Assembly: GCA_000002445.1 (NCBI GenBank)
Contig: CH464491.1
Location: 448,001-512,000, forward strand
Direction of reading: 5' to 3'
Source: Trypanosoma brucei
Taxonomy: Eukaryota
Length of the DNA stretch: 64,000 nucleotides
Below, piece after piece: positions 7,129 through 33,139 of the stretch. The translations under genes were made by a program, and so were the position numbers. Position 1 is the stretch's first letter; each line of letters opens with the position of its first letter. Below the pieces are notes generated by a model. That model saw only the letters and a list, made by a program, of their open reading frames with translations. It was not told the DNA's origin and searched no databases.

Positions 7129-8292
7129 TTACTTTTTCAACTGCCCACTGAGCCAACTGGGGTCGGAGATGTTAGATATGGGGCATACGGTACTTAACTT
7201 AGCGTCTTTGCGGGAACCCCAGAAAGTGTACATCTCCACAGTGGAATTTTTCAGCAAACGAATGGAGGCCTCCCGCTTGGGGGAAGAATTGCTCAGTGCT
7301 CTATACCAATTTATCTCACTCAGATACTGTGGCAATGTACGCTTCCACACGTGAACTGGTCCCGCAAAATGCAGTATCATTCCACTCATAACCATCGTCT
7401 TGGATGGATAAAGGAAGTAACGCGTCTCATAGTCAAGAGATATTAGCCCCCTTCTCACCAACAGCGCTGGCTTTATATTCTCCGGCCTGGTGATACTCCA
7501 TATTAGCAAGAGTGCCCACATTGACTGGTCGCAACCCCAAACAAACTTTTTTTTTCTGAGGTTAAAGAATGCCTTCAGAGCCTCTTCTAGTGCCCACACC
7601 CTGGCAATTATTCCTCCCCCGTTGAGATACGATCTTCCCGATTCATTCGCCCTTAAAATAGAACGCAACCCTGTGCGATTGGAAACTACGAACGCCTCGT
7701 TGTACAGTTTACTGCACTGATGAGCGCGCTCGCTCTTAGGTGTCTTTACCATGAAATGACTTTGAGGGGTGAAACAGAAATTTTCGGCGGCCATCAACAT
7801 TGGAGGTGTCATTTCCCCTCTTAAAATAGCCGTCTCGTTAAACGCTTCAGGGATTTTTGGTGTAGTGTCGAGGAAATGCTTCACTGCCTCCTCCCTTACA
7901 TCCTCCCCTGTGAAGACCGTATCGCCCCCATCAAATATCACAATCACGTCACCCTCACTCATCTTCTTCTGCCGTAGGTACCGGTACAACCACAACCACC
8001 TGCTCACATGCCCATACCAGCCTCCCATGCCCACTGTGGCAACGCTCACATTAGTGAGTATCGAACTTACAATCATCCTGCACCACCCCGGCGCGTACCT
8101 CGTTTCTGCAACAAGAAAAAACACCCTTGGTATGTGATTACCGTAACTTCCATCCTTCTTCCCCTCCACGCTAGTTTCCCCACTCCCTACATTTCTTAAC
8201 CCCAACCACCAAAAAAATAACATCAGCACCAACCCCATAACATACAACCTGCCCCTTGAATCCCCATAGAATTCCCTAACACCTTTCAGCAT
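7129..8292 (-). CDS. Type-II membrane protein, tandem paralog 2 of 2. Same family as 5823-6995.
   Basis: ORF of 387 aa with a signal-anchor (LVLMLFFWWLG), colinear with paralog 1. Central blocks are near-identical at nucleotide level, for example 6490-6590 versus 7800-7900. Confidence 0.6.
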   Translation of the reverse strand: MLKGVREFYGDSRGRLYVMGLVLMLFFWWLGLRNVGSGETSVEGKKDGSYGNHIPRVFFLVAETRYAPGWCRMIVSSILTNVSVATVGMGGWYGHVSRWLWLYRYLRQKKMSEGDVIVIFDGGDTVFTGEDVREEAVKHFLDTTPKIPEAFNETAILRGEMTPPMLMAAENFCFTPQSHFMVKTPKSERAHQCSKLYNEAFVVSNRTGLRSILRANESGRSYLNGGGIIARVWALEEALKAFFNLRKKKFVWGCDQSMWALLLIWSITRPENIKPALLVRRGLISLDYETRYFLYPSKTMVMSGMILHFAGPVHVWKRTLPQYLSEINWYRALSNSSPKREASIRLLKNSTVEMYTFWGSRKDAKLSTVCPISNISDPSWLSGQLKK

Positions 8293-9611
8293 ACAAACAG
8301 ATGTCTCTAAGAAATAAAAGGGTACGCACCCAGTGAGTGGACAACTACACGTTAAATCAAGGGAAACGAATAGTTAATGTTAAACATTAGTTTCCCAACA
8401 GTTAAGGCATGTAAATCCGGCACACCACAACACCAAAAACACATAAATATGTGCAACACCGATTATCTCGGGATGCTGATGCTCCCACTCGCCTACATAT
8501 GAAGGCAGTGGGTCTCAATGCATACCTCGTTAAATGTGAACCCAACGATAACGATATTCTGTGGGACAGATTCAAATAGATGAGACAACAGAGTAGTGTG
8601 CAGGCATTCAATACGTACAACAGTCAGACCTGTTGAGTTTGATTTAGTATTCAATAAGCGCGCTCATAAAGTAAGGCATATTGACCTTCACGTACACATA
8701 ATCGTTGTTTCCATCACACTGCCGCGTCTGTTGTGCATTCCCCCCATTTTCTTATCCACCTTCCCACCCAGATACCACAAACAAACCGCATGATCTCTCT
8801 TACACTTTCGAGCCAATACCGTCACCGAAAGTATACTGACAGGCAGCCAGACAGGGTAAGATTTGGTTCTAATGACATAATGCTGCGTAGAGCAAAGGTA
8901 GTGGGGGGGGGGAAAAAAAAGGATGTGGAGAGGGATGGAGGAAGGAAGGGAACGAGCTGCATAGCAGGCCATTGCTCAGCCGAAAGGTGATTTTTGATGT
9001 TCCGTTATCAATGCATCGCTCAAACTGTTTGGACCTCGAACAACAATTATGCATCACAGCATCAGTGGCCAAAAAGAAAACTAGTAGCACACATATACAC
9101 ACACACGAACATAAACATAAACATAAACATAAACAGGGATGAATGACCTATGAGGAAGAGGGTGGATAAAAACAAAATAATAAGGATGGATGATACTCGA
9201 TTCAGTGTGAGCTGAGTTAAAAATTATGTCTTCAAAATGGCTCTACTGCCGTCAGGCTGACAGGAAACTATTGACTGTCATCATTAGAGGGGAAGATAAT
9301 GCATTTGAGTGCCAAAACTACAAATGGCTCTCGCGCAACAGGACAGGGGCCACATCCCCACGGCATTAAATGGTTGCCACTGGCCCAAGGGATGCTGCGC
9401 TGTATTGTTTCAACAGCACATAAGCAAAAACACATAAATATGTGCAACACCGATTATCTCGGGATGCTGATGCTCCCACTCGCCTACATATGAAGGCAGT
9501 GGGTCTCAATGCATACCTCGTTAAATGTGAACCCAACGATAACGATATTCTGTGGGACAGATTCAAGTAGATGAGACAACAGAGTAGTGTGCAGGCATTC
9601 GATACGTACAA

Positions 9612-14826: not shown

Positions 14827-16101
14827 TTAAAGACTGTTGATCAAATCTTTCGTAATGTTCTTGTGATGTGCCTCGAGTGTGCCGCCGCCGATCTCAAGCA
14901 ACTTCGCATCCCGCCACAGCCGCTCCACCGGCATATCACGCGCATATCCCATACCACCCATAACTTGCATGGCGTTGTCAGCCGCCCGCTTCGCAACAGG
15001 CGCTGCAAACAATTTTACCGCATCGCTCCCCAGGCGGTTGCAATTTCCTGGCGCCACACTCCTGCTTACAGCATATGTAAGTGATTTGGCCGCCTCCGTT
15101 TCTGCAAACGTCTCGGCAATGTAGCGCTGAATCTGTCCATAATTCCAAATGTGTTTACCAAACGTCTTACGCTCATTGGCATAACACGTCATGAGTTCCA
15201 CGCAACGATCAGCAATACCCACCGCCATTGCGGCCAATGTGAGACGCTCAACCTCCAGGTTACGCATCATTGCCACAAGCCCTTTCCCTTCAGTGCCGAG
15301 CAGATTCTCCTCTCCAAGCACCACATTATCGAAGAAAAGTTGACACATGTGAGACCCACGCATGCCGCACTTGTCAATCTTCTTCCCCACAGAAAACCCC
15401 GATGCACCCTTCTCTACAACGAACGCGGTGATTTTGCCGTCAACCTTTGCATACACAAGAACAAGGTCAGCAACGGTACCATTTGTCACCCACGTCTTGC
15501 CACCGTTAAGAATATACTTTCCATTACTTTCTTTTGTCGCAGTGGTCAGCATACCAAGAACATCTGTACCCGCACCGGGTTCCGACATGCCCATTGCACC
15601 TATGTGCTCGCCTGTAAGCACTTTGGGGAGCCACCGCTCCCGTTGTGCCGCTGTGGAAGCATGATAGAAGTTGTTCACAAAAAGCATCGAGTGAGCCAAG
15701 TAGGCGAGACAAAAGCCTGGATCCACTTTGGAAAGCTCGTGGTGGATAACAACCGCTGCCGTGGCGTCCATTCCAGCACCACCGTCTCCCTCAGGAATGG
15801 TTACACCGAGTACACCAAGGTCACCCAACTCGCGTAGGAGATCAACATTAAAATGCATGTCAATATCGCTCTGTTTTGCCTGCGTTTCAACCCGCTCCGC
15901 TGCGAATCTTTGAACCGTTTCACGCAGCATCTTGTGTTCAGGTGTTGGGTTTAAAAGATAATCCAAGTTAACGGTCGTCGAAGGAGAGAAAAAACGGAGA
16001 CCACATGGTGCTACCAGCGCAGTGTAGTGTCGTCTAATAGACGCTAAACGATACGAGCGCATGCTCAACAGGGGGAAATGAAACAAAACGCTCAAATTCA
16101 A
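14827..16101 (-). CDS. IVD: Isovaleryl-CoA dehydrogenase-like acyl-CoA dehydrogenase, with a mitochondrial presequence.
   Basis: The 424-aa ORF has ACAD family motifs: GAMGMSEPGAGTDV, NGGKTWVTNG, YAKVDGKITAFVVEK, and a C-terminal LEIGGGTLEAHHKNITKDL. The N-terminus (MRSYRLASIRRHYTAL) looks like a mitochondrial presequence. Confidence 0.85.
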   Translation of the reverse strand: MNLSVLFHFPLLSMRSYRLASIRRHYTALVAPCGLRFFSPSTTVNLDYLLNPTPEHKMLRETVQRFAAERVETQAKQSDIDMHFNVDLLRELGDLGVLGVTIPEGDGGAGMDATAAVVIHHELSKVDPGFCLAYLAHSMLFVNNFYHASTAAQRERWLPKVLTGEHIGAMGMSEPGAGTDVLGMLTTATKESNGKYILNGGKTWVTNGTVADLVLVYAKVDGKITAFVVEKGASGFSVGKKIDKCGMRGSHMCQLFFDNVVLGEENLLGTEGKGLVAMMRNLEVERLTLAAMAVGIADRCVELMTCYANERKTFGKHIWNYGQIQRYIAETFAETEAAKSLTYAVSRSVAPGNCNRLGSDAVKLFAAPVAKRAADNAMQVMGGMGYARDMPVERLWRDAKLLEIGGGTLEAHHKNITKDLINSL

Positions 16102-16838: not shown

Positions 16839-18413
16839 TCATTTTACACCTCCATCGCAGACTCGCACATCTGCAACTGCTTGCTTCTCGGGATGAAAGC
16901 TCATGAAAGTAATCTTCCCATCCTCACTCTCCAAGAACCTCATGTGTCGCACCTGCAGCAGGTCCTGCTCCGCAGCAGTCAATTCATCCACCTTCACCTG
17001 AGACATTAAGCGACGCGTTTCATCCAACAGGAACTCTGAAGAGAAAGAGTTCGTCAACTTTTCACCCTGGTTAACGCTCTCCTCTTTTATTACCATGTGA
17101 ATTGGAGAAGAAAAGCGACCACGGAGCCCCAATACAGCAATGCATTGTTCCAACGGTGAAAAGCACGGTAGAGGGGATTCCGACACGGGTCGGATCTTTC
17201 CTAACAATCCCTTAACGTGCGATGCTCCCTTCAGCATCCCCGCTGTCGGTTTCTTCGTATGTGCTCGAAATTTGTAATCGTAGCACTGACCGGCCACGAT
17301 GGATCTGAGAGCCCACACTGCACCTTTCAACAGCTCCACACCTTCCTCTATCGCCTCCCTCGAGAGTGGGGACTCCTTCATTGTCATTTGTTTAATTTTA
17401 GACATGTACTTGGCCGGTGAACTGACGTCTTTCACTGCCATTACGGCGCGCAGAAACTCAATATCCACATCGAAACCCTCTCCACGTATGAGTGATCTCT
17501 TAAAATAACCACAGTGGAGACGAAGTTCTCTGTAACGACGCCAGAAAACAAGAGCCACCTTTCCAATTCCCTCAAACCAGTCGCCTCCACTAAGCAGCAT
17601 TAGGAAGACGAAATCAATACGATACGACGGTAACAAATCGGGTCGTATTTGATTCCCCGGTGAAGACGACCCCCAGTGTTTGAAAAGTTCACCAACATCG
17701 GTCAGAGCGTAGTCTCGGGGATCCACTATGGTGAATTTGGTATATGGAGTGCAGGCAACACCAACTAGCACCAAGTCGGAATCATTTCCGACGACTATAA
17801 TTTCATCATCTCCCGTATATGTTTGTGACTTCCGTTGCTCCAGCCAGATGGTACGCAAGACACAAACCACTTTTAGCTCGCCTTCACCACCTTCAGCGCA
17901 GCCACTCATAATAATTGTGTAATTCCTTCCCTCTCCCGGTGGCACACAAAATTCACCACCAATCCCAAATGCACATCTCACCGCATCTTCGCACGCAAGT
18001 AAAAATTCAGACCCCGCGATAATTTCTTCGCGTGAAAATGAGATTTCCTGCCCAATGTAGTCGTGATTGTATCTTAACTCGAGCGAACTTGTACACTCGC
18101 TACTGTGTCGCTTGTTATACGATGCACGCCGGGTCTTCTGTGTCTGAAGTTTGGCGCAAGGCGCAACCCCGTCAAAGAGAATCACAAGGGTTTCACTGGG
18201 GGGAAATGCGGAAATGAGCTTCTGCACAGCCTCAACTACTCCTTCAATCACTGACTTGGTGGTGAAAACATTGGTTGGCACGATATAATGAACAATGGCA
18301 TTCATATCTAAAAGCAGGTGGTTGGTCCTCTTGACGACACCGTCCCTGCCCCTGCTCGAACTTCTGACGAGACCATGTTTCTCGACATAATTTCGTAGCC
18401 CCTTGGTGCCCAT
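16839..18413 (-). CDS. XRN-family 5'-3' exoribonuclease N-domain protein. It is short (524 aa) and lacks the long C-terminal extension of XRN1/XRN2.
   Basis: MGTKGL...HLLLDMNAIVHY matches XRN MGVPKFF...LYLDMNGIIH. LVILFDGVAPCAKLQTQKTRR matches VFFMAVDGVAPRAKMNQQRGRR. DFVFLMLLSGGDWFEGIG matches the XRN (D/N)DF(L/I)P block. Confidence 0.7.
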   Translation of the reverse strand: MGTKGLRNYVEKHGLVRSSSRGRDGVVKRTNHLLLDMNAIVHYIVPTNVFTTKSVIEGVVEAVQKLISAFPPSETLVILFDGVAPCAKLQTQKTRRASYNKRHSSECTSSLELRYNHDYIGQEISFSREEIIAGSEFLLACEDAVRCAFGIGGEFCVPPGEGRNYTIIMSGCAEGGEGELKVVCVLRTIWLEQRKSQTYTGDDEIIVVGNDSDLVLVGVACTPYTKFTIVDPRDYALTDVGELFKHWGSSSPGNQIRPDLLPSYRIDFVFLMLLSGGDWFEGIGKVALVFWRRYRELRLHCGYFKRSLIRGEGFDVDIEFLRAVMAVKDVSSPAKYMSKIKQMTMKESPLSREAIEEGVELLKGAVWALRSIVAGQCYDYKFRAHTKKPTAGMLKGASHVKGLLGKIRPVSESPLPCFSPLEQCIAVLGLRGRFSSPIHMVIKEESVNQGEKLTNSFSSEFLLDETRRLMSQVKVDELTAAEQDLLQVRHMRFLESEDGKITFMSFHPEKQAVADVRVCDGGVK

Positions 18414-19678: not shown

Positions 19679-20674
19679 CTACAATTTCTCCACCCACTTC
19701 TCATAACCCTCCCAGGGAGTGGACTCTCTGCAAATATCTTTTAATCCGCCCTCGCCCTGCTGGAACACCATAAAATGAGGAATTCCAGTCACCTTAATGA
19801 ACGGATGCGTGCGGTAGAGATATTTTGGGTTACCCAAATATACGGAGCGTTCAACATTGCATTGCACATAAACGACGCGGCGCTTCTCCTTCGCTGCCTT
19901 CACTGCGCGCTGCACCATTGGCTCTGCAAGAACACACGGAGGACACCACGACTTGTGGGTTTTGGGATGCGACACACCTTTTATAAGCACCACAAGGATA
20001 TCACCGGGTTGCAGTGCGGCTTTGACCTTCTCAAGTGTAGCATCGAAGTCCCTTGGATTTTTTACCAGAATGTTATCTGTATCATTCGCTGGGCCCATCG
20101 CTGTTTCGACTGGCGGATTGTTAATAAAAAACATGTGCTCCTCATGCGCTTCCACCGCTTCCTTGACAAGTGCTTCGGAAAGTCCAGCGGTGTCACGAGG
20201 AATGGGGCGAAAGGTTTCTGCGCGTCTGAAAAGACGGAGGCAAGTGGCGGGTCCCGAGTTGGAAGAAACAACTCGATGATACATTCCGGGGGGGAGAACA
20301 ATCACGTCACCCATTTTCCCCTCAATGCGTACCCACTCATCCTTCTCATTGCGCACATCCACATAAATAATACCACTTTCCACAATTCGCATTTGTTCAT
20401 CCACGTTAAGGTGTTCCATACTCTCATCCTTCGACGGTGTGGTAAACGTAACCTTCTCCAGTGTTTTGTAACCGAGGTTCCAAATGAGTCGCTGGGCGTA
20501 CGTACGGCCTTCATCGTCATCGGGGTGGCGTTCGTGAAGTGTTGCGACATCTATGCTGCGACTATAAACAAGAAATGTTTCCAATTGCACATCCGTCACG
20601 GGGACGTCTGGTGAGCAGTGACATGGTGCAGTAATATCACCCTCTTGTGTGTTCAATAACCAACTGCTCGGCAT
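19679..20674 (-). CDS. Acireductone dioxygenase (ARD cupin) fused to a C-terminal TRP14/TXNDC17-type thioredoxin-like domain. The ORF track extends to 20716 through a lysine-rich run that is probably untranslated.
   Basis: ARD core: EHLNVDEQMRIVESGIIYVDVRNEKDEWVRIEGKMGDVIVLPPGMYHRVV...CLRLF, matching human ADI1 [50 protein letters not shown]...AMRLF. C-terminal KSWCPPCVLAEPMV...VTGIPHFMVFQQG matches TXNDC17 KSWCPDCVQAEPVV...VTAVPTLLKYG. Confidence 0.8.
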   Translation of the reverse strand: MPSSWLLNTQEGDITAPCHCSPDVPVTDVQLETFLVYSRSIDVATLHERHPDDDEGRTYAQRLIWNLGYKTLEKVTFTTPSKDESMEHLNVDEQMRIVESGIIYVDVRNEKDEWVRIEGKMGDVIVLPPGMYHRVVSSNSGPATCLRLFRRAETFRPIPRDTAGLSEALVKEAVEAHEEHMFFINNPPVETAMGPANDTDNILVKNPRDFDATLEKVKAALQPGDILVVLIKGVSHPKTHKSWCPPCVLAEPMVQRAVKAAKEKRRVVYVQCNVERSVYLGNPKYLYRTHPFIKVTGIPHFMVFQQGEGGLKDICRESTPWEGYEKWVEKL

Positions 20675-20822
20675 TGTTTGATTCTTCCGTTTTGTTTTCT
20701 TTTTTCTTTTTTGCACCTTTAATTAACTTACCTGCACGGGTTTCGCAAAAGTTGACGATGTCTGTAACCTCGATGGGCCCCTAATTAAAGTCCACGATAT
20801 CGGGAACGGGAAGGAAGAGGAG

Positions 20823-20824
<2 letters not shown>

Positions 20825-20878
<54 letters not shown>
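20825..20878. repeat. (AC)27 microsatellite, which reads as (GT)n on the transcribed strand, in the spacer upstream of the ARD-fusion gene.
   Basis: Read directly. Confidence 0.95.
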
Positions 20879-20879
<1 letters not shown>

Positions 20880-21808
20880 CCAAGGAAAGAAAAAAAAGGA
20901 AAGGAAAGGATAAAAAGATTTTTAAAATATATTTCAAGAATGGTTAAAAAACGTATTGAACAGTGATTGGGAAGAGCTCACAAAACAAAATGATGTTATT
21001 AACTCTCACAAAGTTTTCCCCACTTTTGGAGTCCACATGAATGAGCTGAAGTATACCGCGCAGATTTGTGGTTTCACACATCTCCATATTTTGGGGGAGG
21101 GGGGATCGAAACCGAACCACAGTTAAATGTCGTGTCGCATCATTTCAACAGGACCCGAATGTTTGCCGTCACTTGAAATGTATTTTGACATGCCTCTCAT
21201 CCGGGTGATGTTAAGGGAAAAAGGGAAAGGCAGTAAAACAAAAAACAAAAAAACAAAAAGAAAAAAAATAATAACAACAACAAACAAAAAATAAATACCA
21301 ACTACGCGTGAGAAGGCGAAACTTAAAATGTTATGATGATCTGGACATAAGCCGTCCAACCAGCCCCCGTACAGTTATGGGTTGATTTAATATGTGAAGA
21401 TGCCAATTTTTTTTTGTAATTGCGGCCACATTTAAGTGTTATACCCAATTTATTACCATTCTTAACACCAAATAAACGTCGACTAAACAACATATATAAC
21501 AGTCAAAAATAATTTAGAAAAGAAAAATATAAAACAACTTTTATATACGTTACGGAAGTGGACAGGGGGATCGAAATAAGCTTGCGGTGTGCGTGGAGAG
21601 GGAGGGGAAAGGAACAATAATAACAGTGAAACAAGAAAAAAAAAAGGAAAAAGGTCCGGAGCGAAAAAAAAAAACAAATAGAATTAAAGTGGCCCAGCTA
21701 TGCAGAAGTTATGGAACGGTACGAAAAATATTAAACAGGAGTAATGCACAAAGAGGGGGAGAAGGGAAGATGGCACGACATAAAGTACTGACGCGACTTG
21801 CGCCGACG

Positions 21809-23227
21809 TCAGGTCTTTCCGAAAGTGCGTTCATTCATCACTGCCATTATTTGATTCCTCAGACTTCTTCTTATGATGGGCTTGATGATGAAGAATATCA
21901 AGTTCGGAATGAAACCAGAGAAATCGGCACCGATGGAGCCGATCTTTAAGTTATCGCACCTGCGATATATGGTCACAAACCCACCACCTGCTAGTAAAAT
22001 AATGAGATCAACCTTCAGGGCACAATTCTCTACCTTTAGGTCAACAGTGCCGTGCGTGAAATCAGCCGACTTGTTCTTAGCATTGCGATACGAATACGAC
22101 AGCGTCTCCAAGACAATCCGGCGCAAATTTAAACATATTCTCAGGTATTTTCCCCCTTCCTCCAGTGAAGCATAATTGTGGCTCAACTCCACTGTTTTCA
22201 TCTTGATGGGTCCAAGTTTCACTTCGTATTCCCTGCGTAGGAAGCAACTGACAAAATGTGTGGGCTCAGCCACCAGCTCCCGGCCACACAGCTCCTGCTC
22301 CATCAAACTAAAACACGAGGTAATCAAATCAGGGAGAATGGGGGCCATGTTGTTGCACTTCAAAACAATCTCTCTAAGCACAAAGCATCCGGAGCTGCGG
22401 CTAAAGACATCCGCCCATTGTCGCATCATATTCTTTAGGTTCACACATTCACGTTCCTTTGCCACGGTAAACTCAAGGAGGTCCATGCAGCCCACGGAAC
22501 TACCGCTTATGTTGCAGCTTTCATGTCTCTCCTTACCATCAAACCTGAGGCCTTTGGTACCATCTTCCGAAGCGGTGGCGCAGTTTCGCTCAATACCCAC
22601 ACGATGCACACCAATTCTTGCGACACCAATTTTCGGCATTGCTTTCAGCCGTTGCGCATTCCCTGATGTGTTTGTTGTTTGTTGAGGCTTGGAGTCGATG
22701 GTACTCCCCTCTTCCTCGCGTTTTGCTTCACGTAAAGCAGTAATGTTAGCCCACGGGAGAGTTGGTGTCCGGGTGGGGCCGCCCCGCCGCAACATTTCAT
22801 CATCCTCCTCCGGTAACAACAGGGGCTGCGAGGCAGCGGGGTGTGGTGCAACAAATGGAGGGATGAATTTCACATCCCAAGAAGAAGTATCCACCGGGAA
22901 GGCAATGGCAACTTCGTTATACGCATCATGCTGCGAAACGTTGCTAAGTGGTTTACTCTTCATTTTTTCTATTTTGGCGGCAGCCTCCGCGGACAACGTT
23001 TCTTCTTGCTCATTACACCTCCTCACTGGTTGCGTGTCCTCTACGGATTGTATAAGGTACTTTCCGCAATGCGGCGCCAAGTCCACTTTGCTGTGCACGA
23101 ACCGCACAGCGTCCTCCACATCTTTGTTAAACTTGAGTGCGGCAGCAAAGTATTTTTTTCCAGCATATGGGAAGAGGGCCTGCAACAACAACATGTTGCC
23201 CTCCTCCATAGCACTTCCATTATTCAT
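21809..23227 (-). CDS. Hypothetical protein, 472 aa. The N-terminus has a possible CUE/UBA-like motif (LQALFPYAGKKYFAAALKFNKDVEDAV). No further assignment.
   Basis: Long minus-strand ORF in the same polycistron. The overlapping plus-strand ORFs are shorter and low-complexity. Confidence 0.5.
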   Translation of the reverse strand: MNNGSAMEEGNMLLLQALFPYAGKKYFAAALKFNKDVEDAVRFVHSKVDLAPHCGKYLIQSVEDTQPVRRCNEQEETLSAEAAAKIEKMKSKPLSNVSQHDAYNEVAIAFPVDTSSWDVKFIPPFVAPHPAASQPLLLPEEDDEMLRRGGPTRTPTLPWANITALREAKREEEGSTIDSKPQQTTNTSGNAQRLKAMPKIGVARIGVHRVGIERNCATASEDGTKGLRFDGKERHESCNISGSSVGCMDLLEFTVAKERECVNLKNMMRQWADVFSRSSGCFVLREIVLKCNNMAPILPDLITSCFSLMEQELCGRELVAEPTHFVSCFLRREYEVKLGPIKMKTVELSHNYASLEEGGKYLRICLNLRRIVLETLSYSYRNAKNKSADFTHGTVDLKVENCALKVDLIILLAGGGFVTIYRRCDNLKIGSIGADFSGFIPNLIFFIIKPIIRRSLRNQIMAVMNERTFGKT

Positions 23228-23852
23228 TTAAAAGCGACTACACACTTGTGATGATGAAGGGAAGAAGTCTGAGAAGGAAATGATAGACGCGCCTCCACAC
23301 ACAACCATAAGGCGGGTGTCACCGTTTGTTCAAAGCACCGCGCCAACTTAATGCGTTAACCAAGTGAACAAAAACAAAAACAAAAAGGAAAGTAACCCTA
23401 ACCACAAATAATCAAAAAATAGTAAACGTAAACATGAATCTAAGAAAAAGGTATAGGAAACGAAGGTATAGAAAGAAAGGTAATCTTTTACACAAAAAAG
23501 ACCCATTGTTCAACTATCACACTGTATGAGAAAATTACCCTCCTCCCACACACTTCAATAAAACCAAAAAGATAAAACAAAGTAATGCGTGAGGTCACGA
23601 GGATAGAGTGCACCCAATGACATTTAAAAGGTAAAAAAAAAATGAGTGCGCCTAAAACACACGGCATACACACTTCACAAAAAAAAAAGCAAAAAATAAG
23701 TAAATAAACAACAACCAAATACTCAGCTGAAGTACTAGCAATGTTATAAAAGAATAAGTCACCATCTATGGCATCTTTAAAAAAAAAAATGCACCACTAG
23801 CGCTTCCATTTGACAAATATATATATATATATATATATATGTATACGCCCTC

Positions 23853-26800
23853 TCAAGTAGACTTCAAACAGCGCCGAACACGGGCTGCAATACATGGAAA
23901 CGTGGGTTCCCACATCTTTAGGCACTCCGCCTCACGATGCAGCACTTCATCCAACACACATGTTATCCGCCTATCCGTATCAGACACGAGACCGGGGTTA
24001 CATAAGTTAAACCTGCGCTCCATTGCCTCACGGAGGTGCAACGCCACAAAAGTTTCCGGCGCTGGACGCTTGCGGCGCAATGGAGGGGTGTAATCTGACA
24101 CCATTAACACAATGCGGGATGCAACTGCCTCAGCTGCTGTAAGCCATTCCGCGCCCACGCCATCGCTTTCCCGCGGGATGCATCGGTAACGGATGAAACA
24201 GGTTAAAAGTAAGAGAGACCAAAGAAGAGTGTTGCGCGGGTGAGCGATAACCATGTCATCCTTCATACCGTTCAAACAGGGACGGGACACGGAATCGTTA
24301 TTTCCACACAAGTTACCGGTGGAAAAAACTTTACTGTGGCGGAATTCTTCAATCCAGCGACCGGTAGAACTGCACAGTGATGTAATGCATGTCAGAGAGT
24401 CCCAAACAACGTCATGCAACGCACAGAGGTTACGCCTGAATTCTTTGCACTGCCCAAACTCATCGAAAAACTGCGAGAGGAAAAATGTTATCTCCTTGTA
24501 CCCCACATTATGGGTAGTATGCGCATTACGGAAATCAGCATGCGTCATTTGTGCATAAGGCACCGTCTTCACGTCGTGAGTGACCTGCCCAATATCAGAG
24601 CCAACCATGGGGCGAATGGCAATGTTATGAAACAACTCCCCTATAAACAATGGAACAACGCGGAGAAACACACTATTGCGCATGAACGTCTGACGCTCCG
24701 CACAAGCAGCTTCTTTCATAGCGTCCATACTGTTTGGTTTTGTGTTGCTCCTTTCCAAAGCCTCACACTGCGCTTCCATGTAAAACCCCACAAGAACCGC
24801 CCGTCGTAGAGAAGCATTCAGTCGTGGGAGATCTTCCAGTAGACTTGAAACGATATTTAGAAGTTCAGCATGAGGCTGCCGGATCTCGTGCACGTCTGCC
24901 ACAACGCCTTCCACGCCGCCTTCGTTACGAAGGCGGGTTCTTTGGATCGCTGCGTACCGAAATGCACCCAACCAGACAAAAAAATCCAAAATATTGCAAC
25001 GCAGTGCACAATTCACACAAGTGTCATATTTCAGCTCTTGCTCTTTGCCACATTCACCACAGCACTCTTCTGACTTGTCATCACTGTCGGGAGCGGGCGT
25101 CATTGACGTCCGGCACAAGTCTGTGAAACGGCTTTGCAAGGCGCACCGCTCCGCCACACTTTTCGCTGGAAGAAAAAGAGCCGAGTAAAAGTTGTCAGAA
25201 CCGCTGCTTCTCACCCCCGCACGGTTCAAAATTACCCCCGTGGCGAGGCTTCTACAGTTATGGAACAGCCTCTTTACAATGCACAGCACTCTGCACGAAC
25301 GTGGAATGCACACAGCAAAAATATCGACCCCTTCACCTCCGCGAGCACTCCTCCGCTCAATGGGACAGATCACCGTCAACAGAGAAAACATAGTGATAAA
25401 GTAAGCAGAAGAACCAGCAGTGTTTTTCACGGCTGCCATTGCTACGCATAACCACGAGGCTGCTGTGGAAAGCCTCTCTGATTCCACAATAGATTCATAC
25501 CACTTCCTGCTACACCTGTTCTTTGTATCGGACAGAAGCATGCGAAGTACATGCACTAAAGGCTCAATGCTATCGCTTGACAAACTTCTTCGCCGGCAAA
25601 TGTTGGGAAGAACGACGTCGATTACGGATAGGCAAGTCCCCCTTTGAAGAGACGAATCCTGTAGCATAGTGCACAAGCATATAAGATCCGCATCGTGAGA
25701 ATAGCCCTGTATGCCAAAAAAATTTATGGCACGGATCTCATACCGCTCAAGTGCTTCCAAAAGCATAAACGCACACCCCTTTCTAGAAGAATTTGTTGAT
25801 GTCCCCACCCGCACTGCAAGCAACTCCTTGAGCGGCCCGATAACCTTGTGAAGTTGCCGCACGGAAGATATGTGAGGAACCCCATCGCCAATGTACAACT
25901 CCCCCAATATCTTGCACGTAAGATTGCAAAGGCCTTCGAACGACGGCGTGTAAGGCTCACCCGTGTCGTTACTTCGCCCTTCAATGGACATAAACCCGTA
26001 GTGACACAGGGAAATGAGCGATCCCGCCTTCTGCCAATTGGTATTCATCGCCTCAACACTGCGCATACTCTTTCCTCCACGCCCCTCTTCACTCTTTTGC
26101 AACATGTGAAATACGGCAACTAGGGAAATCTTAGTTCGTATTGCTGTCGCGTGTATTTTAGTAAATGAATCCCCCTCAGCCATGTCACCCCACAACATCA
26201 ACCCACCCTCAGCGACAGTCCTGATTTGGTTTAAAGACAAGGACGCCCCTTCCAAATGAGTCCTCAATCGGTTCATAGCATACAAAAGTTCTCCTTCAGC
26301 TCCCTGCTTGCCCGTGTGATCCCCGCGAAGATGATGCGCATACCGCAGTAGTGTGATGATTTGGTCAATACTCAACTTCACAAAGGGAGTACTGCACGAG
26401 CGAAAGCATTGCACTAAACGATATATAAGGCGCCTCTGGCACCTGCTCATTACCGTGCCGTGCTGCAGAGATTCCCAACGCGACGGCTGCTGATTCAGGG
26501 AAATTAGCAAACTCACAGCAAGGTGGTGATGCAGCCGATCCACAAGCGGCTCAAGGTATGCATCCACACGTTCTAAATGGACTGCTCCACCAAGTGCAGG
26601 ACAGAAGAACTTTAAAAAAAGTAGCAGAACGAAAAAAACGGGATCTCCTCCACCTTCCATGCACCCAAACCTATCCACAACCAGTCCGTCAGCGTTAGCG
26701 CCGCTTCCGGAATTAAAGCAACTGTTGTCTTGACGATATGTGCCTCTAATGCCGCAAGGAGGGGACAGGTCGCAACCCTCTTGCAGAAATTTCTCGATGG

Positions 26801-27266
26801 ACAAAAATAATCCTCGTATAAGCTGCACTGAGTACCCATACATATACAATGTCTGTAGAATAGACACAAAGGAGGCGAAGAATGAGTCCCTGTGGTCCGA
26901 CGGGAGACAAATAACTTGGGCCTCACCTTCAACAATCTCCTTCCCTCGCCCACGGACTGCACCACCGCGGTAACAGCGGAGAAAGATTTTCAGAAGATGT
27001 GCAGTTAGAACGGGGTGACGCACATTTAACCCTGATAGTCCCTTAAGAAGGTGGGCAACATGTTTCCCCCGATGAAAGTTCGGGAGCGCTGTTAGAAATG
27101 ATAACACAAATGCATGGACGTCGCGTGGAGGTATGCGCAACTCTCCAAGGGAAAGTACGGTGGTGCTTATCGTGTCCGCATCGTAGAAATGGAGGGAGCG
27201 GTATGCCTGCCGGGCCAATGCTGCCAAAACAGGGACACACTTAGAGAGTGAAGAAAAAGCTGGCAT
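23853..27266 (-). CDS. Hypothetical large protein, 1137 aa. No recognisable domain.
   Basis: Uninterrupted 3.4-kb ORF on the transcribed strand. It is Cys/Leu-rich and probably helical-repeat-like. Confidence 0.6.
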   Translation of the reverse strand: MPAFSSLSKCVPVLAALARQAYRSLHFYDADTISTTVLSLGELRIPPRDVHAFVLSFLTALPNFHRGKHVAHLLKGLSGLNVRHPVLTAHLLKIFLRCYRGGAVRGRGKEIVEGEAQVICLPSDHRDSFFASFVSILQTLYMYGYSVQLIRGLFLSIEKFLQEGCDLSPPCGIRGTYRQDNSCFNSGSGANADGLVVDRFGCMEGGGDPVFFVLLLFLKFFCPALGGAVHLERVDAYLEPLVDRLHHHLAVSLLISLNQQPSRWESLQHGTVMSRCQRRLIYRLVQCFRSCSTPFVKLSIDQIITLLRYAHHLRGDHTGKQGAEGELLYAMNRLRTHLEGASLSLNQIRTVAEGGLMLWGDMAEGDSFTKIHATAIRTKISLVAVFHMLQKSEEGRGGKSMRSVEAMNTNWQKAGSLISLCHYGFMSIEGRSNDTGEPYTPSFEGLCNLTCKILGELYIGDGVPHISSVRQLHKVIGPLKELLAVRVGTSTNSSRKGCAFMLLEALERYEIRAINFFGIQGYSHDADLICLCTMLQDSSLQRGTCLSVIDVVLPNICRRRSLSSDSIEPLVHVLRMLLSDTKNRCSRKWYESIVESERLSTAASWLCVAMAAVKNTAGSSAYFITMFSLLTVICPIERRSARGGEGVDIFAVCIPRSCRVLCIVKRLFHNCRSLATGVILNRAGVRSSGSDNFYSALFLPAKSVAERCALQSRFTDLCRTSMTPAPDSDDKSEECCGECGKEQELKYDTCVNCALRCNILDFFVWLGAFRYAAIQRTRLRNEGGVEGVVADVHEIRQPHAELLNIVSSLLEDLPRLNASLRRAVLVGFYMEAQCEALERSNTKPNSMDAMKEAACAERQTFMRNSVFLRVVPLFIGELFHNIAIRPMVGSDIGQVTHDVKTVPYAQMTHADFRNAHTTHNVGYKEITFFLSQFFDEFGQCKEFRRNLCALHDVVWDSLTCITSLCSSTGRWIEEFRHSKVFSTGNLCGNNDSVSRPCLNGMKDDMVIAHPRNTLLWSLLLLTCFIRYRCIPRESDGVGAEWLTAAEAVASRIVLMVSDYTPPLRRKRPAPETFVALHLREAMERRFNLCNPGLVSDTDRRITCVLDEVLHREAECLKMWEPTFPCIAARVRRCLKST

Positions 27267-28875: not shown

Positions 28876-30102
28876 TCAGATGTGAAACACCTCAACACAT
28901 GTTTGGTAGAACTGTTCTTGGGCTTCCTCCTCTGTAATATTTGCAAGAAAGGCATCCCCCCTCTCTTCCCCCATTGTTCTCACCGTACCAACGTAAGCTT
29001 CGAGTACCTGCCGCAAGTGGCAAGGCTCGGTGCGGCGCTCACTGCAGAGCGTCGGATCAAACGGCTTTCCCCTCCGATTGGTGGGAAACTGAGTTCGAAG
29101 GAAGCGGGCACCATAGTGCTGTTGCCTAATGTCGCACCATGGTGCATCGGTTTCCAGCATCAGCCGATCGCGCGGAATGCTACAAACCTGCTCAGAACGT
29201 TCCTTTTCCCTAAACGCACTGCCGTTTATGCTGAAATAAACACCTGGAATGGCGAGAAGCCGCTCCTGCTCCTCAGGACTCCCATTGTAGCTATGCACAA
29301 CACCTACGAATGGGGTTTCAGATGTCCACGAACGCACCTCCTCTTCAATTAGTTCAACGAAATCCATACCACAATCACGCGAGTGAAGTATGAATGGGAG
29401 ACCCAAAGTCCTGAGAACCCGAAACTGTTGAATAAAGTATTCCCTCTGTACCTCCTTTGGGCAGTAGGAAAGCTCTGCGTAATCCAAACCAATCTCCCCT
29501 ACAGCAACCACAACATCACGATTCTCATTCACCAATTCCACAAGTTTCTCCATACGCTCGTCAGAATGGTGTAGTGAGTCATCGGAATGTTCCCCTGCAG
29601 AGTAATAAGGTACTTGGATCGAAACATCATCTTCTGCTGCAGCTTCAATAGCCTTCCAATCCATCGGCCGTGTCATCTCCGCGCAATGCGCAGGGTGCAC
29701 CCCAACCGTGCAACGAAGGACAGATGGATAGCGACGGCAGAGACGTATCGCCTTTACACACTGCGGAAGGCTCGTACCAGTGATGATGATCTTCCCTACG
29801 TTGTGTTCCACTGCGCGACGCATCACCTCGTCAAAGTTATCATCATGAACACGTCGACCCTTCCAATCAACGCCACGGAAGACGCAATCGGTGAGGTTTA
29901 CCGCAATGTCGACTAAACAAGGAACGGAAGATCCCCTCATGTCGTCTCTAAACGTTGGGTTTATCGTATAATTAGGGGAAAAAATAAGGGAAGGGTCAGA
30001 AGGTGTACAACTACCTACGTCTAAAGACATACGAGAGCTTCCGAATAGACTCAAACTCCCACCGCGGATGAAGTCACGTTTGCACGTAACGTTGTGGTGC
30101 AC
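28876..30102 (-). CDS. TatD-family metal-dependent hydrolase / DNase.
   Basis: Motifs: VDIAVNLTD...F, VGVHPAHCAE, AVGEIGLDY, FILHSRDC, VVHSYNGS, and LMLETDAPW, which are TatD signature blocks including the His/Asp metal ligands. Confidence 0.8.
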   Translation of the reverse strand: MHHNVTCKRDFIRGGSLSLFGSSRMSLDVGSCTPSDPSLIFSPNYTINPTFRDDMRGSSVPCLVDIAVNLTDCVFRGVDWKGRRVHDDNFDEVMRRAVEHNVGKIIITGTSLPQCVKAIRLCRRYPSVLRCTVGVHPAHCAEMTRPMDWKAIEAAAEDDVSIQVPYYSAGEHSDDSLHHSDERMEKLVELVNENRDVVVAVGEIGLDYAELSYCPKEVQREYFIQQFRVLRTLGLPFILHSRDCGMDFVELIEEEVRSWTSETPFVGVVHSYNGSPEEQERLLAIPGVYFSINGSAFREKERSEQVCSIPRDRLMLETDAPWCDIRQQHYGARFLRTQFPTNRRGKPFDPTLCSERRTEPCHLRQVLEAYVGTVRTMGEERGDAFLANITEEEAQEQFYQTCVEVFHI

Positions 30103-30511
30103 TCAAATACACTCAAATATAATATGCCGATGCAGCCTGTGAGCAAATGTGTGATGTCGCTCATGTTAATAAGCAAAGTCCAAGAAAATAGAAAAAACGG
30201 AGACGCACAAAATAGCTGGCACACAACCGAAACAAGTGTGCCTTCACTTCGCACCAACCATAAAACATAACTCATGCAAAAGGTGAGGAAACCCTCATCG
30301 AAGCATACAGAGTTGCAAAGAAAAAAAAAAGGAAGCAAAAGATTAACACTTGCCTGATGGCACGAAAAAAAAAAAGACAGAGAAAACGAAAGCGCTGTGA
30401 AAGAAACCAAGTACACGAAAGGTAAGAGCGCACGTAGAGCGTTTATGTAACTTCCTATGGCGTCCACCATTCCCCTCCTTTTTCCATTATACACATCCTT
30501 CACAGCTGCGC

Positions 30512-33139
30512 TTACGTGTCTAAAACGCTGGCGAGGGTAACAACTTCAACAGAATCCCTCCTAGGAACCAATGGGGCAGGTGGGGACTTTGACTTCACAG
30601 CTGTCGCAGCGTCCGCTAGCCGCTTTTCTTGCTCAGCCTTTCGTTTCTCTTTCTCCATCTTTTGTCGTTTCTGTTCAGCCTTCTTGCGCTTTTTCGTGGG
30701 ACTCGAGCTGAATAACCCTCCTTTCTTACCAATGTCAGCTAAGGAACGGTCGAGCATACCAAAGAAGGAAGGCATTTGCTTCCAACCCGTTGTTGGTTTG
30801 TCGTCAGCGTCGCGTCTCTGGTGAGCAATGCGTTCATCCCACAAAGCTAACATGGAATTGCATGTATCCTCACCAATCTCTTTCTTGCGCGATAGTAACA
30901 AGAAACGCACAACAAATGTTGGGCAATCACCAAAGTCGTCAAGAAGGTCCTTCTGCACGATAAAATCAAAATCTACCGGTTTTCTCACGGCAAGAAGGTT
31001 CTTGACTAGTTCAAGCGCCTTATTCACCTTACTGATAAGCTTACCACGACTATCCGAAATGCGTGCCTTCCACATATCAATTGTTATGACAATGTCACGT
31101 ACAAAACAGTTCACAAACTCATTCCAGTCCTTTGCGGCTTTACTAGACGGATGCCGAACGGCATCTCCGAGAAACTCCATAAGCTCGGTCAAGAATTTCT
31201 GAATGTACCTTTGCATCATGCGATGCGTTACCGTGTGTAGCTGTGAAGCCTCGAAGGAACAGCTGAACTCCTCGTCGATAAAGTCCGCCATAGTGTCGAG
31301 GATTATTCGCGTTGGACTATCCTCTCCCTCATACCAACCTTTTGAGCGGAATACGTCCGGCCACTGCCCCTCGACCATTCGCTCCACATGCAATATAACC
31401 TCATCAATGTAGTGGGAAGCATGATCTACCAGAACATCCTGAGTCTGAATAAACGGTGAGTTGTCTTCAAGGCCCTCTTCCTCGTTCCAATAAGACACAA
31501 ACACGAGCTCAACCGTGTCCATGTTGCGCTCAATCACTGAACAGTCATTGCAAAAGGCATACAAAAACGCAAGTCGTCGCATCTTCCACTCCTCATTGCC
31601 GCTATTTCCACCAGATTTTTGCCTTTGCTCCATCTCCTCCCAACGGTCGTAATCAATTAACAACTTACATTCCGAAAAGTAGCTCTCAATTGCAGCTGCA
31701 CAGGCCCTGCCTATCTGTCGCATGACGTCGACTTCGATCGCCGTTGAGAGACCGGCAAGAGTTTGCTGCAGTACGGCAAACATGTCTTTTGGCCCGGTTG
31801 TAACAGGCAGACCACTAGAGCTCCGAAACGGTTTATTTCCATCCTCCAGGACAGTTCTAGCACATACCTTACATAGTTGCACAAGATGCATCATGAGCCC
31901 GTCCACAGCACCCGCCGTCATGCAGGCCGACAGTTTGTCCAGTGCAGCGATATCAACATGAGATGAGTAGTTTCCATCCTTCAACATCTCCTTGTACCAT
32001 CGCACGAAGTCGGAGGCGGCGATGAGGTCGTTTGCTTTCGCCTCCAACCCCGGGTCCGCATAAATTTCGAGCGATTTCACCACCTCCCCATGCAAGGAAA
32101 CCACTACAATAGGAAATAGAGATAACCTGCTCGAAAGAGGAATCAATGTCATTTCAAGAGCCGAAAGAATCGGCGCTATCTTCTTCATACGATCCAAATA
32201 GGCAACGCCCTGCGCAACAGGATTGGTGAACTCCGCCATCACGTCGTCCACCCACAACTTTTTTGCGCAAGCGGCGACAGCTTCGAATATTTTGGCCTCG
32301 GTGATGAGCGGCTCCCCATCTGCAGAGTACAAGAAACCTTTATCCTCAGTTATCTCAACGGCGCACAACTGCACGCATTCCTCTAATTGCGTAAACTCGG
32401 GTATGGACTGCACCACCGCCCCCATTCGCGGTGGATCCTTAAGCGCCTTTTGGATCGCAGCGGGCACTGAAGTTTCTCTAAAAAGTTTGTAGACACCTTC
32501 AACAAACATCGTCTGCACTAACTCCAGCTTTTCAAAGTAGGGGTCAAACGAGTTTTGGTGTGCTTTGGGGTAGCTGTGCAATTCCTCTGTTACAGTCTGA
32601 CGTATGAGCTGCAGCCGGCACAGCCGTTTGTACACGGCGGCGAACTGTCGCTGCTCCACAAGCCTGTACATGTCTGTGTAACGCAATTCGTTGAGTACTT
32701 CAACCCATTCGATGACAGAAGTAACATTGCTTCGAAGATAATGCAGCTCACGTAGCTGTTTGTAGCTTCCCGAAGTCACATTCATCTGAGCAATGATACT
32801 ACCCTGCTTGATAAAAAGCTCGCGGAGGTCCTGAATTCGCTCCCCACTTTCTTTCACAATCTGCACGGCTCTATGTCCCTCCAACATCTGTGAGGAGGCC
32901 ATTGATTTAATTGCACGCCGGAGTTCCTGTGCTTCTGTCGTACAGGCACGTAGGAGTCGAGGTATAACTGCTTCCAAATCTTCCGCATGCGCCAACTCGT
33001 GGTTTATGGCTGTGTTGACCTCCTCCGCCAGGACCACGCGGTCAGTTTCGGAAAGATAAGGCCAAAGCTCCTCTGCAGTGTAAAATTGTGAAGAATCAAG
33101 CTCACCCAACGCAACATTAGACTGATGTGGGACCGGCAT
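30512..33139 (-). CDS. Hypothetical 875-aa helical protein with a basic KR-rich C-terminal tail. Possibly a tethering-complex or exocyst-like subunit, but this is very tentative.
   Basis: Long ORF with predicted coiled-coil/helical-bundle character. The C-terminus KKRKKAEQKRQKMEKEKRKAEQEKR. No catalytic motifs. Confidence 0.55.
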   Translation of the reverse strand: MPVPHQSNVALGELDSSQFYTAEELWPYLSETDRVVLAEEVNTAINHELAHAEDLEAVIPRLLRACTTEAQELRRAIKSMASSQMLEGHRAVQIVKESGERIQDLRELFIKQGSIIAQMNVTSGSYKQLRELHYLRSNVTSVIEWVEVLNELRYTDMYRLVEQRQFAAVYKRLCRLQLIRQTVTEELHSYPKAHQNSFDPYFEKLELVQTMFVEGVYKLFRETSVPAAIQKALKDPPRMGAVVQSIPEFTQLEECVQLCAVEITEDKGFLYSADGEPLITEAKIFEAVAACAKKLWVDDVMAEFTNPVAQGVAYLDRMKKIAPILSALEMTLIPLSSRLSLFPIVVVSLHGEVVKSLEIYADPGLEAKANDLIAASDFVRWYKEMLKDGNYSSHVDIAALDKLSACMTAGAVDGLMMHLVQLCKVCARTVLEDGNKPFRSSSGLPVTTGPKDMFAVLQQTLAGLSTAIEVDVMRQIGRACAAAIESYFSECKLLIDYDRWEEMEQRQKSGGNSGNEEWKMRRLAFLYAFCNDCSVIERNMDTVELVFVSYWNEEEGLEDNSPFIQTQDVLVDHASHYIDEVILHVERMVEGQWPDVFRSKGWYEGEDSPTRIILDTMADFIDEEFSCSFEASQLHTVTHRMMQRYIQKFLTELMEFLGDAVRHPSSKAAKDWNEFVNCFVRDIVITIDMWKARISDSRGKLISKVNKALELVKNLLAVRKPVDFDFIVQKDLLDDFGDCPTFVVRFLLLSRKKEIGEDTCNSMLALWDERIAHQRRDADDKPTTGWKQMPSFFGMLDRSLADIGKKGGLFSSSPTKKRKKAEQKRQKMEKEKRKAEQEKRLADAATAVKSKSPPAPLVPRRDSVEVVTLASVLDT

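Follow-up and report, generated by a model that had tools for sequence, protein, structure and literature searches.

The metal center of human acireductone dioxygenase (ARD), an enzyme of methionine salvage, is built from four ligands, His88, His90, Glu94, and His133 (PMC8315008), and in the Klebsiella enzyme the mutation of any single ligand abolishes both metal binding and activity (PMC8315008). The human protein, ADI1, also has protein-binding functions that are independent of metal (PMC8315008). TRP14 (TXNDC17) is a thioredoxin-fold protein that is reduced in mammals by TrxR1, an enzyme that trypanosomatids lack (PMC6783113). Among protists, the MtnBD protein of Tetrahymena is a fusion that involves an ARD (MtnD) domain, but its ARD, a catalytically active one, is paired with MtnB, an enzyme of the same pathway, and this fusion is absent from Trypanosoma (PMC3698126). 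Trypanosoma brucei carries a fusion that is likewise built on an ARD domain. The stretch analyzed here, called the window, comprises 64,000 nucleotides (nt) of contig CH464491.1 (assembly GCA_000002445.1, positions 448,001 to 512,000 of the forward strand), and at window positions 19679-20674, on the minus strand, it holds a gene in which an ARD-like cupin is joined to a TRP14-like thioredoxin domain. Sequence comparisons indicate that this gene is a Trypanosoma-specific divergent paralogue within a broader ARD-TRP14 family. We favor, at a probability of about 60%, the reading that its product is a redox-active TRP14-like oxidoreductase with a repurposed cupin, in which the thioredoxin domain would be active and the cupin would no longer be a canonical ARD.

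The gene occupies a single open frame in the list of open reading frames (ORFs) for the window (19679-20716, minus strand), and the first ATG in this frame is at 20674. Translation from this codon yields 331 amino acids (aa) plus a stop, with no internal stop. All orthologues in the alignment share the start methionine, in the form M-x-x-[AS]-W, and because they begin at the same residue, 19679-20674 is the correct coding sequence. The product is identical to the TREU927 protein XP_828245.1 (= EAN79133.1 = UniProt Q386Z8), which NCBI labels 'hypothetical protein, conserved' and to which UniProt automatically assigns the name 'acireductone dioxygenase (Fe(2+)-requiring)'. The contig that carries the gene is 5.26 Mb long and presumably represents chromosome 11.

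An earlier note on this DNA had proposed a single ORF at these coordinates, without naming the strand, with an ARD domain followed in the same frame by a TXNDC17-type domain, and both the coordinates and the order of domains are borne out. Each domain scores well above its Pfam cut-off. ARD (PF03079) matches aa 9-153 with 60.9 bits against a cut-off of 27 (E 2.2e-16), placing a strongly diverged ARD/ARD' cupin at 20216-20650, and TXD17-like_Trx (PF06110) matches aa 209-306 with 49.4 bits against a cut-off of 23.1 (E 4.3e-13), the fold itself continuing to the C terminus at aa 331 (19682-20050). Searches of PDB sequences gave the family expected for each half: aa 3-160 match mouse ADI1 (E 1.8e-16) and human ADI1 (E ~1e-12), and the C-terminal half matches TXNDC17/TRP14 (E 3.3e-9 to 1e-6). 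An AlphaFold2 model computed from a 51-sequence alignment has a mean pLDDT of 94.3 and a pTM of 0.89, with every segment at a pLDDT of at least 50, and it fits one compact two-domain unit in which the domains would be packed rigidly against each other. When this model was searched with Foldseek, the N-terminal half matched the ARD structures 1vr3 (E 3.8e-16, TMt 0.81) and 4qgn (TMt 0.82), and the C-terminal half matched the TRP14 structures 7xq3 (TMt 0.76) and 1wou (TMt 0.72). By sequence and by fold, the protein belongs to both the ARD and the TXNDC17 families.

The two domains are connected by a linker helix (aa 167-185) followed by a conserved interdomain segment, P-P-x-E-T-x-x-G-P-A-N-x-x-D-N (aa 187-201; 20072-20116), as judged from alignments and the AlphaFold model. 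Both lie outside the Pfam domains, and the interdomain segment is kept from Trypanosoma to the bodonid-type sequence P0010, which is 34% identical overall. In the thioredoxin domain, the active-site motif W243-C-P-P-C247 is found at 19934-19948 by direct reading and by alignment with TRP14, and in the model a helix begins at aa 245. The cis-proline position of the thioredoxin fold is taken by I298-P299 (19778-19783), which pairs with the V-P of human TRP14 in the alignments. The domain therefore has both the W-C-x-x-C motif and the cis-proline loop. Compared with TRP14/TXNDC17 (1WOU, 7XQ3, 22FG), it has the same thioredoxin fold, with W-C-P-x-C and the cis-proline in register, but TRP14 carries CPDC and is not fused to a cupin, whereas the T. 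brucei domain carries CPPC and is. The earlier note had recognized the CPPC and was also right that ARD and TRP14 are separate proteins in animals and yeast.

The most telling feature of the cupin is its metal site. In HMMER alignments with mouse and human ADI1, the ADI1 segment EHLHLDEEIRY pairs with EHLNVDEQMRI in T. brucei. The canonical ligand motif H-x-H-x-x-x-E is thus represented, both in alignments and on direct reading, by the degenerate H88-L-N90-V-D-E-Q94 (20393-20413), in which the second histidine has become asparagine and the glutamate has become glutamine. The fourth ligand, H133, is kept in the alignments (codon at 20276-20278), giving the ligand set His/Asn/Gln/His (HNQH) in place of the 3-His-1-Glu set (HHEH) of ARD. 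Human and mouse ADI1 (MTCBP-1; 4QGN/1VR3) have the same cupin fold and share H88 and H133 with the T. brucei protein, but ADI1 stands alone at ~179 aa with all four ligands. The Trypanosoma HNQH proteins are, in addition, 8 residues short at the position of human ARD helix D, just before the ligand motif, and helix D of the canonical kinetoplastid fusions is longer than theirs by these 8 residues. The expectation that the N-terminal half would align with ARD cupins is upheld, whereas the accompanying claim that the metal-binding His/Glu region is conserved fails, since H90N and E94Q are found in all nine Trypanosoma species.

In the sequences compared, the HNQH combination is confined to Trypanosoma. 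It occurs together with WCPPC in 12 of 12 Trypanosoma sequences of this copy, from nine species, whereas HHEH is present in every one of the 119 other ARDs retrieved alongside, among them ~50 fusions, nearly all with WCPDC. A further 137 representatives from a profile-search library include 123 with HHEH and none with HNQH; the remainder are a few genuine single-ligand variants, one truncated sequence, and misaligned tandem-TXD17 proteins. The exact CPDC of TRP14 is replaced by CPPC in all Trypanosoma HNQH copies, and its aspartate is present in 41 of 42 canonical fusions. The two sets of changes are not strictly coupled, because the Angomonas fusion combines CPPC with a canonical ARD site. 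Four other apparent cases of a fusion with a degenerate ARD (P0147, P0165, P0232, and P0242) were rejected as tandem TXD17 proteins misaligned by MAFFT. Ligand substitutions are also seen elsewhere in the ARD family, namely E94Q in P0203, H90N with E94H in P0253, H90D in P0245, E94T in P0141, H90G in P0148, and H90C with E94I in P0246, and degeneration of the ARD site may be recurrent across the family.

WCPPC is also the active-site motif of tryparedoxin. Membership in that family was considered and rejected, as the motif alone is insufficient and the thioredoxin domain, at E <= 1, retrieves only PF06110 and a sub-threshold match to PF00085.

The fusion as such is old, widespread in kinetoplastids, and already annotated. 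The two-domain ORF is present in T. brucei, T. congolense, T. vivax, T. cruzi, T. melophagium, T. grayi, T. conorhini, T. rangeli, and T. theileri, the eight other species being 56-76% identical to the T. brucei protein over the full length. Searches with relatives and profiles recovered the same ARD-TXD17 architecture in Bodo saltans, Leptomonas pyrrhocoris, L. seymouri, Angomonas deanei, and Phytomonas, and it is also found in the prokinetoplastid Apiculatamorpha spiralis and in many metagenomic sequences. Among the Amoebozoa, fusions occur in Difflugia compressa (P0285, arranged ARD-ARD-TXD17) and in the P0102 cluster, which includes a partial sequence from Vermamoeba vermiformis. In one source, the product name given to the T. 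vivax protein is already 'ARD ARD' family Eukaryotic protein of unknown function (DUF953)'. Since the architecture is widespread and database names reflect it, the fusion is not a discovery. The survey across kinetoplastids and other eukaryotes that the earlier note had proposed was thus productive, and its outcome removes the impression given there that the fusion is unusual. Literature searches on the fusion, on DUF953/TRP14 in trypanosomes, and on the accessions found no paper discussing an ARD-TRP14 fusion and none describing a functional link between ARD and TRP14. The canonical fusions of Bodo saltans (P0016), L. pyrrhocoris (P0054), and T. grayi (P0135) have the same domain order as that of T. 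brucei, and canonical kinetoplastid and T. brucei proteins share the linker PPxxT..G.AN..DN and a length of ~330-357 aa. A further fusion, P0025, is filed under the foraminiferan Bolivina argentea in EukProt. It clusters with Bodo saltans (90% bootstrap) and is probably a bodonid contaminant of the B. argentea transcriptome.

What sets the T. brucei gene apart becomes clear from T. grayi, which has two fusions. One (P0006) is of the HNQH/WCPPC type, and the other (P0135 = XP_009310662.1) has HHEH and WCADC and is encoded at 7451-8524 of JMRU01000297.1. The P0135 gene adjoins a large protein kinase, the orthologue of a kinase upstream of the L. pyrrhocoris fusion (38% identity over 629 aa, E 5e-122). 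A glutaredoxin gene lies ~6 kb downstream of it on the same strand. Gene order in the window (Sec6-like, TatD, a 247-aa ORF, a 1137-aa ORF, a 472-aa ORF, the ARD-thioredoxin fusion, an XRN-type exonuclease, and an acyl-CoA dehydrogenase) is instead collinear with the P0006 locus. Canonical trypanosomatid fusions are therefore found at a kinase-flanked locus and the HNQH gene at a different one, and this difference in location makes them paralogues. The HNQH clade has 100% bootstrap support in neighbor-joining trees of both the ARD and the thioredoxin halves, and its stem is long in the ARD tree; neither tree fixes where the clade attaches, which leaves the duplication undated. When P0135 was searched against the protein database, other Trypanosoma yielded no close relative, the best match being a metagenomic sequence with 41% identity.

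Divergence of the HNQH clade from the canonical fusions is uneven. Its ARD domains score 57-61 bits against Pfam, compared with 127-145 bits in Bodo, Leptomonas, and the T. grayi HHEH copy, whereas its TXD17 domains score 48-51 bits, within the 38-56 bits of canonical fusions. The ARD halves of T. brucei and Bodo are 28.5% identical, as opposed to 43-46% among canonical fusions, and the corresponding thioredoxin halves are 44% identical, as opposed to 29-40%. The ARD half has diverged fast and the thioredoxin half has not been accelerated. Even so, T. brucei and T. cruzi remain ~60% identical in the ARD half and ~66% identical in the thioredoxin half. The region of the altered motif, E-H-L-N-x-D-E-Q-M-R-x-V-E-S-G, is nearly invariant in the nine Trypanosoma species, none of which shows a stop or frameshift. 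The full-length identity of 56-76% over nine species points to purifying selection, and the good conservation of both halves within the genus is what would be expected of a constrained but changed protein rather than a decaying one. Conservation of at least 85% across 42 canonical fusions was seen at 68 positions, only nine of which are fixed differently in the Trypanosoma clade (R19H, N23D, D73E, H90N, E94Q, T136V, W155F, Y180H, and D246P).

The gene with its two-domain architecture, the altered residues, the existence of paralogues, and the uneven divergence of the halves were all observed; a loss of ARD catalysis, the source of reductant, and a binding role for the cupin are deduced. The thioredoxin domain would be the working part of the protein, acting as a dithiol oxidoreductase. 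Thioredoxin reductase is absent in trypanosomatids, where trypanothione is the presumed reductant of thioredoxin (PMC6783113); because of this absence, the thioredoxin domain of the fusion would be recharged by trypanothione or by tryparedoxin. The cupin, for its part, would have lost Fe/Ni-dependent acireductone dioxygenation and would now serve as a regulatory module that binds a ligand or another protein. The redox control of, or reductant supply to, the Fe/Ni ARD reaction that the earlier note had offered is unlikely for the HNQH copy, in which two of the four ligands are replaced, although for canonical fusions such as those of Bodo or Leptomonas redox support of this kind may be apt. The moonlighting function that it raised as an alternative fits best among its interpretations.

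Several considerations weigh against this assignment. Of the 68 canonically conserved positions, 59 are unchanged in the Trypanosoma clade, which suggests that the pocket is largely intact, and the fact that three of the nine clade-specific changes fall within the eight catalytic positions of the two active sites is only suggestive (Fisher p = 0.065). The substitutions of histidine by asparagine and of glutamate by glutamine are near-isosteric, leaving oxygen or nitrogen donors in place, and for this reason a site of two histidines, asparagine, and glutamine could still bind metal. Glutamine does ligate zinc in the cupin phosphomannose isomerase. Acireductone has also been putatively detected in T. 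brucei metabolomics (PMC5976210). Furthermore, the apparent absence of the canonical copy in T. brucei, T. cruzi, and the remaining trypanosomes comes from a protein-database search. Finally, the published enolase interaction discussed below is attached to this protein only through a presumed orthology.

These points also feed the most substantial alternative, namely that the protein is still a working methionine-salvage ARD with a His/Asn/Gln/His site, perhaps with another metal preference, and that the thioredoxin domain controls or protects the reaction. An ARD profile match above cut-off, an ARD-like fold, strong purifying selection over nine species, the putative acireductone peak, and the automatic UniProt name are all in keeping with such an enzyme, as is the retention of ARD residues including R96, D106, R108, W114, R116, H133, R134, R147, and R160. 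We nevertheless regard it as a tentative possibility and on balance unlikely. Every Trypanosoma species has substitutions at two of the four ligands, set against HHEH in all 119 other ARDs retrieved alongside, and in Klebsiella ligand mutants are inactive and metal-free (PMC8315008). The Pfam score of the ARD domain is below half that of canonical fusions, and the domain is shortened at helix D. T. grayi retains a canonical copy alongside the HNQH copy, which implies that the two are not redundant, and the pathway enzymes upstream of ARD (MtnA, MtnB, and MtnC/E1) are reported as missing for T. brucei in KEGG (PMC3846528). The same rapid divergence and the loss of two ligands might be read instead as decay, with the pathway lost, the ARD half drifting neutrally, and the whole protein devoid of selected function. 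This is very improbable given the near-invariance of the altered motif, the ARD-half identity between T. brucei and T. cruzi, the absence of stops and frameshifts, and a structural model that is confident throughout. Even less credible is the suggestion that the ORF is an artefact, with two adjacent genes or transcripts, a frameshift, or read-through having joined halves that are made separately. The only support found for it is an internal pyrimidine run of 11 nt (20288-20298). That run, the sole tract of at least 10 nt in the ORF, lies inside the ARD domain, at the codons for V-L-P-P-G, and not between the halves, and the two long pyrimidine runs, of 29 and 17 nt, are upstream of the ATG. 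An uninterrupted two-domain ORF with its linker is found in nine Trypanosoma species and in dozens of kinetoplastid and amoebozoan sequences, some of them derived from transcriptomes, and AlphaFold packs the halves as a single unit. To judge from these comparisons and the model, a two-gene or artefact explanation is effectively excluded, and no frameshift or stop of the kind that the earlier note had named as refuting the fusion separates the halves.

A more specific role may be proposed for the cupin. The title of a 2018 paper by Quintero-Troconis and colleagues (PMID 29530564) reports binding and inhibition of enolase by a 'putative acireductone dioxygenase' of T. cruzi. We take this protein to be, probably, the orthologue P0004, which is 61% identical to the T. 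brucei protein, has HNQH and WCPPC, and is the only ARD-type T. cruzi protein that was retrieved in our searches. On an extended version of the favored reading, most trypanosomes, including T. brucei, would lack a true ARD, the Yang cycle would be broken there, and the cupin pseudoenzyme together with its CPPC domain would act as a thiol-redox regulator, for example of enolase. We consider this full scheme doubtful. For T. brucei, the salvage steps that precede ARD are missing from KEGG, as already mentioned, and whether the Yang cycle operates in this organism has been described as unknown (PMC5976210).

At stake is the presence of a functional ARD step in T. brucei. If the HNQH protein is the sole ARD homologue and is without half of its ligands, the UniProt name is unsafe for T. 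brucei, pathway reconstructions that rely on the ARD step are unsafe as well, and dependence of the parasite on imported methionine would gain support. The pair of paralogues in T. grayi offers a natural experiment in which a metalloenzyme domain would have been repurposed while its fused redox partner was kept. More generally, that ARD and TRP14 are fused repeatedly, in kinetoplastids and in Amoebozoa, speaks for a functional connection between these two proteins of sulfur metabolism. What is new here is the trypanosome-specific, ligand-degenerate paralogue; the fusion family itself was known, having been annotated but not studied.

Upstream of the ATG, the two polypyrimidine tracts, 29 and 17 nt long, lie within 20808-20910 and likely correspond to the predicted spliced-leader addition signal of the fusion gene, as deduced from the usual layout of trypanosome genes. 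They flank a (TG)32 dinucleotide microsatellite (coding strand, 20825-20888), ~150 nt upstream of the start codon. At the other end of the gene, bodonid-type fusions often terminate in -AKL, -SKL, or another -xKL, and the -AKL and -SKL endings look like type 1 peroxisomal targeting signals (PTS1). A W-[VIL]-x-K-L C terminus is common to bodonid-type fusions and Trypanosoma HNQH copies, whereas canonical trypanosomatid copies end differently. The T. brucei protein ends in -EKL (19682-19690), which is not a canonical PTS1, and those of other trypanosomes end in -EKI, -KNI, or -DSI. Given these endings, glycosomal targeting, which was considered, plays no part in the model put forward above.

The neighboring genes at 16839-18413, 21809-27266, and 28876-33139 are all on the minus strand, as in a polycistronic unit. 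The neighbors include the XRN-type 5'-3' exonuclease, the TatD-type DNase, and the Sec6-like exocyst component, and the 472-aa and 1137-aa ORFs have no Pfam matches. The acyl-CoA dehydrogenase gene at 14827-16101 is intact in the T. brucei window, encoding 424 aa with three ACAD domains. In T. grayi, matches to this gene (L003, 15837-16399) are fragmentary and in different frames, with a called product of 73 aa, and the T. grayi copy may be a pseudogene or reflect an assembly problem.

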